Positions 46,068-54,310 of a stretch of DNA of 64,000 nucleotides are shown in pieces; position 1 is the stretch's first letter, and each line of letters begins with the position of its first letter. The notes under the pieces were generated by a model. The model was not told the origin of the DNA, did not search any database, and was given only the letters and a program-made list of their open reading frames with translations. A program made the position numbers and the translations under genes. The stretch comes from Candidatus Saccharimonadota bacterium (lineage in GTDB: Bacteria; Patescibacteriota; Saccharimonadia; Saccharimonadales; Saccharimonadaceae). Location of the stretch: positions 83,157 through 147,156 of the forward strand of contig JAEETK010000001.1 in the NCBI GenBank assembly GCA_016290315.1. The letters run 5' to 3'.

Positions 46068-49000
46068 ATGTTATTCAGGAGGGGTTCTGTAGCATCTCGC
46101 GCCAAGGGGCGCAAAACAAAAAGGGAGAAAAACAACAAACTAGCCCATATTTTGGTGGCTATGTTCTTGGGTGTTTTTGTCTCGGTTTTTGCATTCAACT
46201 CTCTTGCCGAAATCATCACAGACAACGATGTCCGTGTAGATGTAGATTCGGAACTCACATATTATCTCAACGTCAAAGAAGATGGCGTAGACACTGCTGG
46301 TATAGAGTCTAGTGATAGTCAAATTGCAGATATACGCGGTGGTCGCATTAATGTCACGGACAAACTCCCAGACGGCCTTATCTTCCAAGGCTTTGTTACT
46401 ACCTCTGACGGTACATTTGGCGCTGTATCTCGCTCAGACAGTTCTATTCAATGTTCCGGTAAAGTTGTCGATGACACTAATGAAGAAGCCCTAGATACTG
46501 GTACTTGGAATAATACTCATACTGAATACTATTACCATGGCCTACATTACAACGATACAACTCGTACAGTTTCCTTTACGGCCGAGAAGATTAAAGCCGG
46601 CTGCCAGTTAACTGTCGGCATTATTACGAAGACCCCAGCAACCGTTGACGATCCAGATACTACGCCAATAGAAACCCGAAGAGATTTCTACAACACCGCC
46701 TTTGCGGCCGAGAAAGACGTCACGGCTATCTCTAACACTGTCCATGCTTGGATAGGTAGTTCTAGCACCAGAGTATACAAAGTCATGTATAGATATACAG
46801 GAGACATTCCAACGGGTGCGCCAACTGCGCCAAGCGATCAGTCTTACCCAGCCAATAATGAAGTAGCTGTCAGTATGAATCCAACCCTCGAAGGCTATAC
46901 CTTCTCTGGTTGGACTACAACTGATGCTACGGTCACTGATGGCTCCTTCACGATGCCAGGCCAAGACGTAGAGTTAGTTGGTATTTGGACTAAGAACGCG
47001 ACGGCAACCAAGTATACAGTAACTTATGTAGTAAATGGCGAGAAACCAGCAGACTTTATGCCGCCAACTCAGAAAGAATATGAAGCCGGAGTGAGCGTGT
47101 CGCTGGATTCTACTGAAGCGAATACTGTCATTGACGGCTACCGTTTTAGAGGCTGGAGCACTCAAGACATAGCTCTCAGCGATACCGGCTTCACGATGCC
47201 CGCCCACAACGTTACCATTGTGGGCAGCTTTGAACGTATTAGCTACCAAGTCTGTTATATGTTTGAGGGTTCTGTTATTCCACCAAACTCCGCGTCTATT
47301 CTCCCGCCATGTGAAACCCATTATCCTGGCGATACAGTCACAAGAGCTGCTGATCCGCAAGCTAATGGCTACGACTTCCTTGGTTGGTACAAGAATGCTA
47401 GCTTCACGATGCCAGAAGAAAATGTCACTATTTACGGCGAGTGGATGCGTACGATGGGGAAGTTTGTTCCGACCATCACTAAGACCATTACTAACCCTAA
47501 AGACGAATATATGTATGGCGAAACTGTAAAGTTTAAGATTACCGTTACTAACCCAGAATCTTTCGCCATTACCGATGTCTACTTACAAGAAGAATTGGAC
47601 GGCGCAGTCTTTACGGCGCCAACCGACAATAGCTACACGGTCAAGACTAGCACTATAGCCTTTATTCCTACCATCGCCGCAAACTCTAGTATTGACGTTT
47701 ATGCCGAATACAAAGTAACCGAAAATACCGCTCAAACCCTCACTAACATCGTTGAACTGACTGGTGCTCTGGCTGAAGACCATATTTTAGATACCGACCA
47801 AGAATACAAAGCTACTGTGGACTTCGACACTATCCCTGAGCCTGTGCCAATTACAGGCGTTATCTTCAATGCTTTGCCATATGTAGGGATGGTGGTATTG
47901 GGGGCCGGTATGCTCGTTTGCCTAGTGTTGCTGCCGCGTAGGTTGAAGGTTAACGCTAGGGCTATTCGTTATGTTAGCGGGACTGCTTTTAAATACGCGT
48001 TTCCTGGTATTATTGCTGCTACTTTCGTCTTCGGCGGCCTAATGATTCATTCTGCTATGGCGGCTCCGTATACAGAAGTCATTAAGTCTGTAGAACTCAC
48101 TTCGCAACATACAAGCTACACTAATAATGCGCCTGGTTCTTGGAATGTAGAAAAGAGCGCTGAGTGGATAGAACAGGGTAAGGCGAGAATAACCTTTGAT
48201 GTAAATACAATTGCTAAGGTTGCAGATAATACGCATCTAGATCTCGTAATGGTCATAGATAACTCGGGCTCAATGAGTGGCGACAAGATTACGCAAGTTA
48301 AGCATGACGCTACGGAGCTAATTGAAAGTGTTCTCTCCGACAGCAATAACCGTATTGGACTCGTGAGTTTTGGCTCTAGCGCTTCAAGGCTAAGTAACTT
48401 AACGACCGATAAAACTGCCCTTACGGATTTGGTTAATGGCTTAACGCCTGCGGGTAGTACTAATTACTATGGCGGTTTTAAAAAAGCCGAAGAAGTCCTT
48501 GATGGGTACCAGAAACAGAGTGGCCGCGAGCTAATTATGCTGTTCTTGACTGATGGCTATCCGAATGAAAAGTCTCCGAATGAGATAGCAGAGTATAGGC
48601 TATTAAAAAGCATGTATCCCTACATGACCATCAATGGCATCCAATACGAGATGGGCGATGAGGTGCTTGACCCAATCAAGGTAGTTACGGATAACCAGTT
48701 CATTGCTAATATGGATTCATTGAATAACGTCCTCTTTGAAGCCTCTATTGCGCCATATATCTACGATAACTTCACCCTAGTAGACTACATTAATGACGAA
48801 TATTGGGACGTAGATAGCGTAGACAGTATCGAGACGACTATTGGTGAAACATCTTTAACCCACGATGGCAATACGCCAGTCGTAACTTGGATAATGGATG
48901 AAGTATTGGTATCTGGTCGCTCGGCGCAGCTAATCATAGATGTTACTCTCAAGGATACTGGCGCCATAGCAGAAAACACTTTCTTGCCGACTAATGATCA

Positions 49001-53536: not shown

Positions 53537-54310
53537 ATGAAGGGGCAAAGTGAAAACAAGATTGTTGTCGTCCAAAATATTATAGATAGGGTGTTCAATA
53601 TTATCCTATTGTCGGTATCGATATTATTTTTGTGCGTTGGAATTTATGCACTTATTGATAATCATTTAGTTGTGAAAGAGGCAGATATTCCGGATAGTCT
53701 GAAAAAGTTGGCTATGGCCGATCGAGCCTACCCAGATATACAGGAGTTGCAAAGAACTAATGAGGATATAGTTGCATGGTTAACGCTAGATGATACTCCG
53801 ATAGATTATCCAATTACGCAGTCTAAAGATAATGCAAAGTATCTAACGGTGGATTATAAAGGTGAACATTCGATTGCTGGCAATCCGTTCGTGGATCATC
53901 GGAACGATTTCTTAAATGATAATTATACGGTTATTTACGGTCATCGTATGAACCGTAATAAAATGTTTGGTTCTTTGGTGGAATATGTAGACAGCTCTTA
54001 TTTGCAAAAGCATCGTCGGGGTACTATAACTACTACAAAAGGCACATTTGAGCTTGAGGTAATATCTTATTCGGTGGAGGATGTAACTAAGACGAAAATC
54101 TATGATTTGGCAAGTATTCGAAATGGTAAAAATAAAGAAATTATTAAGTCTATTATTGAAGGTGGTAGTACGGTAAATGGCAGCTATCCAGCCGAGAGAT
54201 TGCAATCCGATGAAGTAAATGGCTGGCAATTGATACTTCTATCTACTTGCGATAAAGATTCGCGCCATTACCGCGATGTATTACTATTGAGGGTTGGTGA
54301 AGAATTGTAG
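53537..54310 (+). CDS. class B-like sortase (pilus polymerase candidate)
   Basis: 257 aa with an N-terminal TM helix, IDYPITQSKDN, VIYGHRMNRNKMF (His), LLSTCD (Cys) and RDVLLLR (Arg). Confidence 0.8.
   Translation: MKGQSENKIVVVQNIIDRVFNIILLSVSILFLCVGIYALIDNHLVVKEADIPDSLKKLAMADRAYPDIQELQRTNEDIVAWLTLDDTPIDYPITQSKDNAKYLTVDYKGEHSIAGNPFVDHRNDFLNDNYTVIYGHRMNRNKMFGSLVEYVDSSYLQKHRRGTITTTKGTFELEVISYSVEDVTKTKIYDLASIRNGKNKEIIKSIIEGGSTVNGSYPAERLQSDEVNGWQLILLSTCDKDSRHYRDVLLLRVGEEL

Follow-up and report, generated by a model that had tools for sequence, protein, structure and literature searches.

The FCT-2/3/4 regions of Streptococcus pyogenes comprise Cpa, SipA/LepA, the pilin FctA/Spy0128, the class B sortase SrtC/Spy0129, and FctB. 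Each of the two domains of Spy0128 holds a Lys-Asn bond with a catalytic Glu, and the two triads are K36-N168/E117 and K179-N303/E258. The PI-2 system of Streptococcus pneumoniae and S. oralis (PitA, SipA, PitB, and SrtG) is SipA-dependent. SipA is inactive and yet essential for polymerisation (PMC4049620). In the vWA proteins RrgA, GBS104, and SpaC, the vWA domain lies inside a protein with a terminal sorting signal, and this protein is covalently joined to the pilus tip. Porphyromonas gingivalis Mfa5 is a vWA tip protein of type V pili, and the DUF285/PARCEL surface proteins of Mycoplasma and Listeria are lipoproteins. Saccharibacteria are ultrasmall and live attached to other bacteria. The work so far on how such epibiotic Patescibacteria recognise and hold their host bacteria concerns type IV pili (PMC11623550) and Pam pili (10.64898/2026.03.03.709456), both of which are filaments of this phylum with a proposed role in host contact, as well as essential surface adhesins which were left unnamed (PMC11665869). 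The pili of candidate phyla were stated to be unrelated to sortase pili (Kantor 2013; PMC3812714). No paper on sortase pili in Saccharibacteria was found in the literature, in agreement with the original prediction made from the DNA sequence of the present locus, in which such a pilus was thought to be uncharacterised in this group.

The window, that is, the whole stretch of DNA analysed here, is 64,000 nucleotides in length. As had been predicted, four co-directional ORFs were found at 46068-54310, all on the plus strand, with intergenic gaps of 92, 28, and 2 nt. The first (46068-51872) encodes a fused precursor of 1934 residues, in which an Ig-repeat sortase substrate and a vWA-DUF285 surface protein are joined in frame. 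The second (51965-52996) encodes a backbone-pilin candidate of 343 residues with a signal peptide. The third (53025-53534) encodes a SipA/LepA-type signal-peptidase-like protein of 169 residues, and the fourth (53537-54310) encodes a class-B-type sortase of 257 residues; both have an N-terminal membrane helix. The operon is flanked by uvrD on one side and by rpsF-ssb on the other, and this arrangement is repeated in independent assemblies, four of which (L001, L006, L007, and L011) have the same housekeeping neighbours and the same gene order. A strong promoter was found ahead of rpsF in the promoter scan, so the end of the operon is marked there; as a whole, the promoter/terminator scan was uninformative, since chance alone would give 18 promoter-like sites and 11 were obtained. 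The closest genomes are MAGs of Ca. Nanosyncoccaceae/Saccharibacteria, which bears out the Saccharibacteria/CPR-type assignment made earlier. The host is a gut- or rumen-type, Nanosyncoccaceae-like Saccharibacterium, and the operon is chromosomal. The type IV pilus genes expected at 6.6-10.5 kb of the same window (a pilT-like ATPase, pilC, an N-methyl pilin, and pilD) are present at 6625-10527.

The FCT-like gene logic that had been proposed for this operon holds. A pilin, a SipA-like pseudo-peptidase, a class-B-type sortase, and an upstream sortase substrate are all present, and for three of the operon's four proteins the PDB matches include S. pyogenes pilus proteins. As in the S. pyogenes FCT region, a shaft pilin of the T-antigen fold is accompanied by an inactive SipA-type S26 homolog and a class-B-type pilin sortase, the sorting motifs are of the non-LPXTG, xxxTG type, and a sortase substrate gene lies upstream of the pilin gene. 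Unlike that region, the present locus has the gene order pilin, SipA, and sortase in a Saccharibacterium host, its upstream subunit lacks thioester and Cpa-like domains, it has no FctB-like basal pilin, and its pilin has an invariant Cys pair instead of Lys-Asn triads. Foldseek and the family profile each picked up PitB of the PI-2 system, but it aligns less well (TM ~0.35); moreover, the PI-2 sortase is of a different class and PI-2 has no vWA partner. Judging from these comparisons, I consider it reasonably probable that the operon specifies a functional, sortase-dependent system for a surface fibre, of the same type as S. pyogenes FCT-2/3/4 and S. pneumoniae PI-2; polymerisation (inferred from homology alone), cleavage, and host binding are all proposed steps of it. 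Its assembly by sortase transpeptidation would differ from the ATPase-driven assembly of type IV pili. Identity with the Pam pilus of Saccharibacteria was rejected, since Pam assembles by donor-strand exchange (10.64898/2026.03.03.709456).

The 1934-residue protein begins with a signal peptide (46068-46208; aa 1-47) having a basic n-region and a hydrophobic stretch at aa 23-51. The cleavage site, behind FNSLA and before E, was inferred by the AxA-type rule. The exported N-terminal module (46209-47843; aa 48-592) consists, according to Pfam, of an unknown N-domain, three InlB-B/Flg_new repeats, and one CLIPPER/DUF11 domain. Its AF2 model is all-beta (pLDDT 85), and the Foldseek matches were generic only, namely Ig-like adhesin stalks, SHIRT domains, and CLIPPER domains. 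No thioester, Cpa-like, or DUF7601 domain was detected in this stalk module by Pfam or Foldseek. The module belongs to a family of >800 proteins, most of which are stand-alone proteins of 610-700 residues. It is directly followed by an internal cell-wall sorting signal (47844-47948), which is composed of VPITG (nt 47844-47858; aa 593-597), a hydrophobic helix (aa 598-622), and PRRLK. The stand-alone homologs end at the same signal, with DPVTG...SRRK and a stop codon in L014 and with PVITG...NRRK and a stop codon in L021/P0067. From the gene position and the sorting signal, I infer that the stalk module may serve as a tip subunit.

Behind the internal sorting signal, the ORF has the retained signal peptide of a vWA protein (47949-48062; aa 628-665), ending with HSAMA before AP. 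It aligns with the signal peptide of a separate 1101-residue vWA gene in L021 (aa 5 of the latter corresponding to aa 641 here) with 56% identity. The vWA domain itself (48240-48590; aa 725-841; PF00092 VWA and PF13519 VWA_2) has the MIDAS motif DxSxS in the form of DNSGS (aa 731-735). Its best PDB sequence match is Mfa5 (E 1e-7), and a weak match to the GBS vWA adhesin 3tw0 was also obtained. About 24 tandem DUF285/PARCEL repeats, of ~26-27 residues each, lie at 49635-51842 (approximate limits), with E-values of 1e-217 for PF03382 and 1e-175 for TIGR02167 (24 stretches), and the repeat DNA has an 81-nt period in ~20 copies at 50058-51676. The protein ends with RPDWYTGG and no helix; a C-terminal sorting signal is thus absent, as it is from the separate vWA orthologs in L021 and L024.

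The same in-frame fusion was found at four other loci (L006, L007, L010, and L012; 50-90% identity), and for this reason the idea that the ORF stems from faulty assembly or from the loss of a stop codon was rejected. Unfused counterparts are found in L014, L021, and L024, and separate vWA or vWA-DUF285 genes stand within the same operons. As judged from these alignments, the 1934-residue ORF is an in-frame fusion of an Ig-repeat sortase substrate of ~600 residues and a vWA-DUF285 protein. The original prediction described a single adhesin with a vWA domain and a MIDAS; the domain and the motif are there, but the ORF is a fusion. A pilus tipped by a giant adhesin, which was also envisaged, does not fit the locus, as the vWA part lies downstream of the sorting signal, comes with a signal peptide of its own, and forms a separate gene in relatives. 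Among the sorting motifs listed at that time, VDTG does stand at the C-terminus of the pilin, while VPITG is internal and DILTG lies outside the four proteins. An internal start for the vWA part could be only the TTG at codon 626, which has an AGG immediately adjacent and no convincing ribosome-binding site.

Since the vWA-DUF285 part lies C-terminal to the sole sorting signal of the ORF, sortase cannot join it by the standard route, and only the N-terminal part could be attached. The locus resembles those of RrgA, GBS104/PilA, and SpaC in that a vWA domain with a MIDAS is encoded within a sortase pilus operon. Unlike those proteins, however, the vWA protein here has its own signal peptide, lies beyond the sortase site, and lacks a C-terminal signal. 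It resembles Mfa5, which is a vWA protein associated with a pilus but no canonical pilin; Mfa5 is unrelated in its type of pilus, in its assembly chemistry, and in its phylum. The PARCEL repeats are shared with the Mycoplasma and Listeria lipoproteins, although the repeats here stand behind a vWA domain and are fused after a sortase substrate.

The 1934-residue ORF may encode a polyprotein-like precursor, in which an internal sortase cut would separate the stalk of ~545 residues from the vWA-DUF285 protein. The vWA-DUF285 part would also be exported because its own signal peptide is retained, and it would be either anchored by a membrane hairpin or released by signal peptidase behind AMA, before A. 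The vWA/MIDAS-PARCEL head would then be the binding part, docked without a covalent bond on a stalk that is itself covalently attached. Some relatives have the two halves as neighbouring genes and others have them fused, and thus the halves probably work together. If this is true, one sortase reaction would attach the stalk and free the head. It is also conceivable, but rather doubtful, that the internal sorting signal is an uncleaved fossil. The 1934-residue protein would then remain whole and be anchored by a membrane hairpin (aa 598-665) with the Ig-repeat and vWA-DUF285 arms both outside, and the pilin, the SipA-like protein, and the sortase would be independent of it. This topology is self-consistent, with a signal peptide, a stop-transfer helix, and a re-insertion helix, and to my knowledge no sortase has been described to cut at a sorting signal inside a protein. 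However, P[ILV]TG, the helix, and the basic residues are kept in all five fused homologs down to 50% identity, which speaks for the sortase signal being still under selection. Behind the second helix, the AxA site is likewise conserved in the fused homologs. Should the internal signal of the polyprotein-like precursor be used, this would represent a mode of precursor processing that is new for sortase.

The 169-residue protein belongs to PF10502 and matches TIGR02227 with 83 bits, and its best PDB match is S. pyogenes SipA (4n31; E 6e-14). It had been predicted to be an S26 homolog with boxes B and E but without the box D Lys, and the residue check agrees. Box B retains its Ser (VSMNG) and box E is kept (DSRTFG), while the general-base Lys of box D is changed to Ser79 (MSEIIGEE). 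None of the 16 relatives has the box D Lys, and the nucleophilic Ser of box B is not conserved among the relatives, where A, F, I, V, N, or E is found. The Ser-Lys dyad of an active type I signal peptidase (S26A) is not present in the 169-residue protein, which matches the inactive SipA pattern and is predicted to be catalytically dead. The sortase has YGH136, LLSTC238, and R246, and the Arg at C+8 has the same spacing as in Spy0129. Class B was the only sortase class matched (TIGR03064, 139 bits, which is under the cut-off of 153.75), and the PDB matches include SrtB of Bacillus anthracis (E 5e-27) and Spy0129 (3psq; E 4e-22). Thus, both the motifs and the class B models support the earlier assignment of a class B-like sortase with His, LLSTC, and Arg. 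The operon and the 64-kb window as a whole yielded neither a basal pilin nor a housekeeping sortase; the two class-B-like sortase loci were all that phmmer returned from the window.

The AF2 model of the 343-residue protein (pLDDT 85.8) has the two-domain Spy0128/T-antigen fold, and its top Foldseek matches are Spy0128 (E 4.6e-15, TM 0.69), T-antigens, and PitB. The pilin family profile matches T18.1 and Spy0128 (E ~1e-18), and the Pfam match is DUF7601 (E 6e-11). The sorting signal (52886-52993) is composed of AVDTG (aa 308-312), a hydrophobic helix, and ARKK. These results agree with the predicted Spy0128/FctA-type pilin and its tail. The position of the signal is conserved across 60 homologs, although the motif varies: VDTN, VPTN, VVTN, VNSG, and TPTG were found within the clade and xLTG in distant relatives.

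The intramolecular triads (Lys-Asn/Asp-Glu) suggested for examination in the original prediction turned out to be replaced, though the fold is FctA-like. In the profile alignment, K36, N168, K179, and E258 of Spy0128 correspond to R45, S177, H188, and K262, respectively, and only E117 is kept (E118 in the pilin); for N303, the column was deduced solely from the family alignment. In the Saccharibacteria clade as well, 45/45 sequences have the triad residues replaced, while Firmicutes-type relatives of the pilin retain the K/E/N triad of the C-domain. The Cys200/Cys221 pair is invariant in the pilin clade. The shaft pilin has thus lost the self-formed Lys-Asn isopeptide bonds which are usual in its family. 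A disulfide between Cys200 and Cys221, together with salt bridges, probably takes their place, and such a pilin would be a natural experiment on the purpose of these bonds. Lys162, found in each of the 45 clade sequences, is part of a predicted loop (aa 157-173) and stands ~8 columns upstream of the column of Spy0128 K161. K236 and K283 are also conserved. Lys162 is the best candidate for the acceptor lysine of an inter-subunit bond.

The assembly may be envisaged as follows. All four products would pass through Sec and be exported or inserted into the membrane, and the sorting signals would keep the precursor of the pilin, as well as the N-terminal module encoded by the big ORF, in the membrane. 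The class-B-type sortase (C238/H136/R246) would cut behind the Thr of AVDTG and VPITG. The acyl group would be handed to a Lys residue on the next pilin, with Lys162 favoured, in the loop which carries Lys161 in Spy0128. The product would be a shaft of 343-residue subunits with the Ig-repeat module as a cap or interspersed, and the SipA-like protein, if catalytically dead, would act as an assembly chaperone as in streptococci. It is possible, and I propose it only tentatively, that gut and rumen Saccharibacteria make host contact via such a covalent sortase fibre beside type IV pili, using a sortase-split polyprotein and a disulfide pilin, two features which are not known from sortase pili elsewhere.

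An unlikely alternative is that the class-B-type sortase links single copies of the 343-residue protein and of the Ig-repeat module to peptidoglycan, with no polymer being formed. S. aureus SrtB attaches IsdC in this way. Class B enzymes include monomer-anchoring sortases (PMC7900414), and the pilin lacks the isopeptide triads, which are the source of force resistance in shafts. The candidate acceptor Lys is off the Spy0128 column, and the operon has no basal pilin. In contrast, SipA-type pseudo-peptidases are known solely as pilus polymerisation factors, and the nearest structural relatives of the 343-residue protein are all shaft pilins. The invariance of Lys162 within the clade and the tandem pilin paralogs in relatives (two in L014 and six in L017) also favour a polymer.

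Is the fibre locus a genuine part of the Saccharibacteria genome? A synteny survey across Saccharibacteria, as had been suggested, recovered the order stalk protein, pilin, SipA, and SrtB in at least eight independent Saccharibacteria-type loci. The dN/dS values are 0.02-0.18 over all operon components, with 0.08-0.11 for the N-terminal part of the big ORF, 0.09-0.18 for the pilin, and ~0.02 for the sortase. These values together with the synteny in independent Saccharibacteria MAGs indicate that the locus is functional and native, and by these sequence measures the operon is under purifying selection, intact, and native to the lineage. The GC3 skew of the big ORF, the pilin, and sipA is unlike that of the neighbouring genes, while the sortase is not different, and this is suggestive only as a sign of horizontal transfer. 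It is very improbable that the operon is non-functional, left over from a Firmicutes island gained by horizontal transfer, or that it is an assembly/binning chimera; the decay of a second module in the same window, the GC3 skew, and the relatives in Bacilli and Clostridia MAGs would be in line with it, but the four ORFs are all intact with low dN/dS values and have the same order and the same housekeeping genes in the four independent assemblies mentioned above. At least in the Nanosyncoccaceae-type lineages of the animal gut and rumen, the pilus module is retained complete, and its adhesin cassettes are fast-changing. The locus is thus a new candidate for the host attachment of Saccharibacteria by a streptococcal-style module, and it offers testable candidates: the pilin, the acceptor Lys, the two sortase cleavage sites, and the MIDAS-bearing head.

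The second module is also FCT-like and lies on the plus strand at 34391-36451, where a pilin, a SipA remnant, and a sortase are clearly decaying. The pilin (34391-35467) is interrupted by an in-frame TGA (34505-34507) and ends with GDILTG, a helix, and KKKHK. DILTG was therefore rejected as a motif of the four-gene operon, as it belongs to this second pilin. The SipA remnant (35455-35757) is 100 residues in length, and the sortase of the second module has an in-frame TGA at 36260-36262.

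The original prediction of a four-gene operon was essentially right. The co-directional ORFs at 46068-54310 on the + strand encode a 1934-aa protein (46068-51872; the big ORF), a 343-aa pilin (51965-52996), a 169-aa SipA-like protein (53025-53534), and a 257-aa sortase (53537-54310), separated by 92, 28, and 2 nt, respectively. The locus is best described, as judged from its sequence, as a variant of a SipA-dependent class-B-sortase pilus in a Saccharibacterium, in which stalk and adhesin are fused into one precursor and the shaft pilin lacks the isopeptide triads, while polymerization, internal cleavage, head docking, and host binding are hypotheses. 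The uvrD gene lies upstream of the operon, and rpsF, ssb, and rpsR lie downstream, with a strong promoter-like site directly before rpsF. In independent assemblies, the operon was found between the same housekeeping genes. The stalk module (the Ig-repeat N-terminal part of the big ORF), the pilin, the SipA-like protein, and the sortase show dN/dS values of 0.02-0.18 against six related loci. The genomes nearest to this one are MAGs labeled Ca. Nanosyncoccaceae or Ca. Saccharibacteria (pilin 95% and UvrD 99% identity), and two remoter relatives are from the omasum and the duodenum of goats. Upstream of the big ORF, with uvrD alone in between, a 344-aa ORF (42833-43867, +) with an N-terminal membrane helix has no match in Pfam and is kept at 85-96% identity in two related loci (L006 and L007).

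The likeness to the FCT pilus region of Streptococcus pyogenes is well supported by homology, as the locus combines a T-antigen-fold pilin, a SipA-type pseudo-peptidase, and a class B sortase. The pilin matches Pfam DUF7601 and, weakly, TIGR03786. When the PDB was searched with the pilin sequence, the significant matches were S. pyogenes T-antigens and Spy0128 only. A profile of 27 sequences of the pilin family found T18.1 (E 6e-19) and Spy0128 (E 1e-18) as well as Cpa, PitB, and FctB. The AF2 model (pLDDT 85.8) has two all-beta domains, and its top Foldseek matches are Spy0128 (E 4.6e-15, TM 0.69), other T-antigens, and PitB.

Does this pilin have the Lys-Asn/Asp-Glu triads for intramolecular isopeptide bonds? 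The residues of Spy0128 were mapped via the profile alignment, with the numbering anchored on the N168A and E117A mutant entries, and it was found that the triads are not kept. In the N-domain, K36 is replaced by R45 (an Arg that is near-invariant) and N168 by S177, while E117 corresponds to the invariant E118. In the C-domain, K179 is replaced by H188 and E258 by K262, a position occupied by Lys or Arg across the clade. The counterpart of N303 is probably D302/E303, as read from the family alignment. The triad-replacement pattern occurs together with Cys200 and Cys221 in 45/45 pilin sequences of the Saccharibacteria clade; among the Firmicutes-type relatives retaining the C-domain K/E/N triad, most lack both cysteines. 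In the AF2 model, the two cysteines border a beta-hairpin (strands 201-207 and 213-217), a placement compatible with a disulfide bond. Since Lys162 shows no variation in the Saccharibacteria clade and falls within a predicted loop (aa 157-173), it is the best candidate for the acceptor lysine; in the profile alignment, it is about 8 columns away from the K161 column of Spy0128.

The SipA-like protein, an S26 homolog, is closest in the PDB to S. pyogenes SipA/LepA (E 6e-14). Among 16 relatives, the general-base position is occupied by S, Y, G, L, or M and never by Lys, while the nucleophile position is occupied by S, A, F, I, V, N, or E. Thus, this family is a pseudo-peptidase family like SipA, which lacks the catalytic dyad and is needed for pilus polymerization (PMC4049620; PMC7900414). 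The sortase is matched by class B models alone (139 bits, under the equivalog cut-off of 153.75), and in the PDB it matches class B enzymes, among them the pilin polymerase Spy0129. Its residues H136, C238, and R246 were assigned, and the Arg is at C+8, just as R229 is placed 8 residues after C221 in Spy0129.

A pilus tipped by a giant vWA adhesin, as originally proposed, was not supported in that form, because the sole sorting signal of the big ORF precedes the vWA part. A signal peptide (aa 1-47) is followed by an N-domain, three InlB-B/Flg_new repeats, and a CLIPPER/DUF11 domain, and then by a complete cell-wall sorting signal (aa 593-627) consisting of VPITG, a hydrophobic helix, and PRRLK. 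After a short basic linker comes a second hydrophobic segment ending SAMA|AP, and then a vWA domain (MIDAS DNSGS), a linker region, and about 24 DUF285/PARCEL repeats. No sorting signal was found at the C-terminus (...RPDWYTGG). Standard sortase chemistry could therefore attach only residues ~48-596. According to the predicted topology, both halves would be outside the cell and linked by a membrane hairpin, which could be removed by the sortase (between T596 and G597) and possibly by a signal peptidase (between A665 and A666) in a putative processing step. At the DNA level, the DUF285 region is a tandem repeat (50058-51676) with a period of 81 nt, about 20 copies, and 74-76% matches; assemblies tend to break there, and one related contig (L001) begins within the repeat.

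The same in-frame fusion was found in four other Saccharibacteria loci (L006, L007, L010, and L012; 50-90% identity), and the fused homologs all keep the P[ILV]TG motif with its helix and basic residues, as well as an AxA site that follows the second helix. In other relatives, the stalk module is a stand-alone gene whose stop codon directly follows the sorting signal (...DPVTG-helix-SRRK in L014 and ...PVITG-helix-NRRK in L021/P0067), and the vWA protein has its own gene within the same operon. The vWA protein of L021 (1101 aa) is encoded 3′ of the sortase gene; the signal peptide at its N-terminus can be aligned to the big ORF from aa 641 onward (56% identity). L024, which derives from a Ca. 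Saccharibacteria MAG, has a stalk-like gene (643 aa) and a vWA-DUF285 gene (1224 aa) with 8 nt between them. Since the two halves are separate genes in these relatives, the big ORF joins a sortase substrate to a secreted partner in a Rosetta-stone-type fusion.

The window has a second pilin-SipA-SrtB set at 34391-36451 (+). The pilin of this set retains the K/E/N triad, is broken by a TGA in frame (34505-34507), and ends with GDILTG-helix-KKKHK. Thus, the DILTG motif noted in the original prediction is real but belongs to this second pilin, not to the main operon. The SipA homolog is a 100-aa remnant (35455-35757), and in the class-B-like sortase a TGA falls in frame at 36260-36262. With the stops read through, the pilin and sortase genes each give a full-length homolog with 30-39% identity to other modules. 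Since TGA is an ordinary stop codon elsewhere in the window, the second module looks like a decaying copy.

In public metagenomes, the pilin family forms about 38 clusters (52-94% identity) and the sortase about 25 clusters (55-98%). Remoter modules (30-40% identity) exist in MAGs of Bacilli, Clostridia, and other Saccharibacteria, a spread that fits exchange with gut Firmicutes. The GC3 skew is −0.28 to −0.04 for the big ORF, the pilin, and sipA, and +0.36 for the sortase; most neighboring housekeeping genes have +0.16 to +0.55, except ssb (−0.01). This is suggestive, though not conclusive, of the adhesin and pilin cassette having been gained or recombined later than the sortase gene.

In related MAGs, CAMZBA01 (L007 and L012) and JAZQCP01 (L006 and L008), a further pilin paralog (83-84% identity) lacks adjacent SipA and sortase genes, and one of these loci has a big adhesin gene. 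The big ORF of the window is nearer to the L012 adhesin (88/82/62% over three parts) than to the syntenic L007 adhesin (50/39/none), which has a different C-terminal module resembling the L021 vWA protein. This pattern looks like adhesin cassette shuffling. In the ENA metagenome contigs L021/L022, an unfused operon (613-aa stalk, pilin, S26 homolog, sortase, and 1101-aa vWA protein) has ISL3 and rve transposases and a reverse transcriptase of the group II intron type on its flanks, a hint of mobility. The L024/L025 operon (sortase MBR5419146) has two stalk-like genes: the first ends with PPLAG and a helix, resembling the SrtA-type LPLAG motif of FctB, while the second has an atypical ...STPNTL-helix end directly 5′ of the separate vWA-DUF285 gene. 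In L017, six tandem pilin paralogs precede an S26 homolog and a 404-aa sortase; the binning of this contig as Muribaculaceae looks doubtful for a Gram-positive-type system.

In the literature on Saccharibacteria, Patescibacteria, or TM7 with sortase or LPXTG, no sortase pilus was found described in the phylum. Sortases and sorted proteins have been noted in TM7, whose pili were called unrelated to sortase-associated pili (Kantor 2013, PMC3812714), and a sortase family is present in more than half of CPR genomes (Méheust 2019). For the new Pam pilus, the mode of assembly is donor-strand exchange (10.64898/2026.03.03.709456). Some relatives of the present genes are labeled "class B sortase" or "InlB B-repeat-containing protein" at NCBI; thus, parts are already annotated, while the system is undescribed. 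The coexistence with type IV pilus genes was confirmed, as a T2SSE ATPase, T2SSF/PilC, an N-methyl pilin, and an A24 prepilin peptidase are encoded at 6625-10527. Directly 3′ of this cluster lies a tyrosine recombinase gene (10537-11475, +; Phage_integrase with a SAM-like N-domain), probably for a XerC/D-type enzyme.
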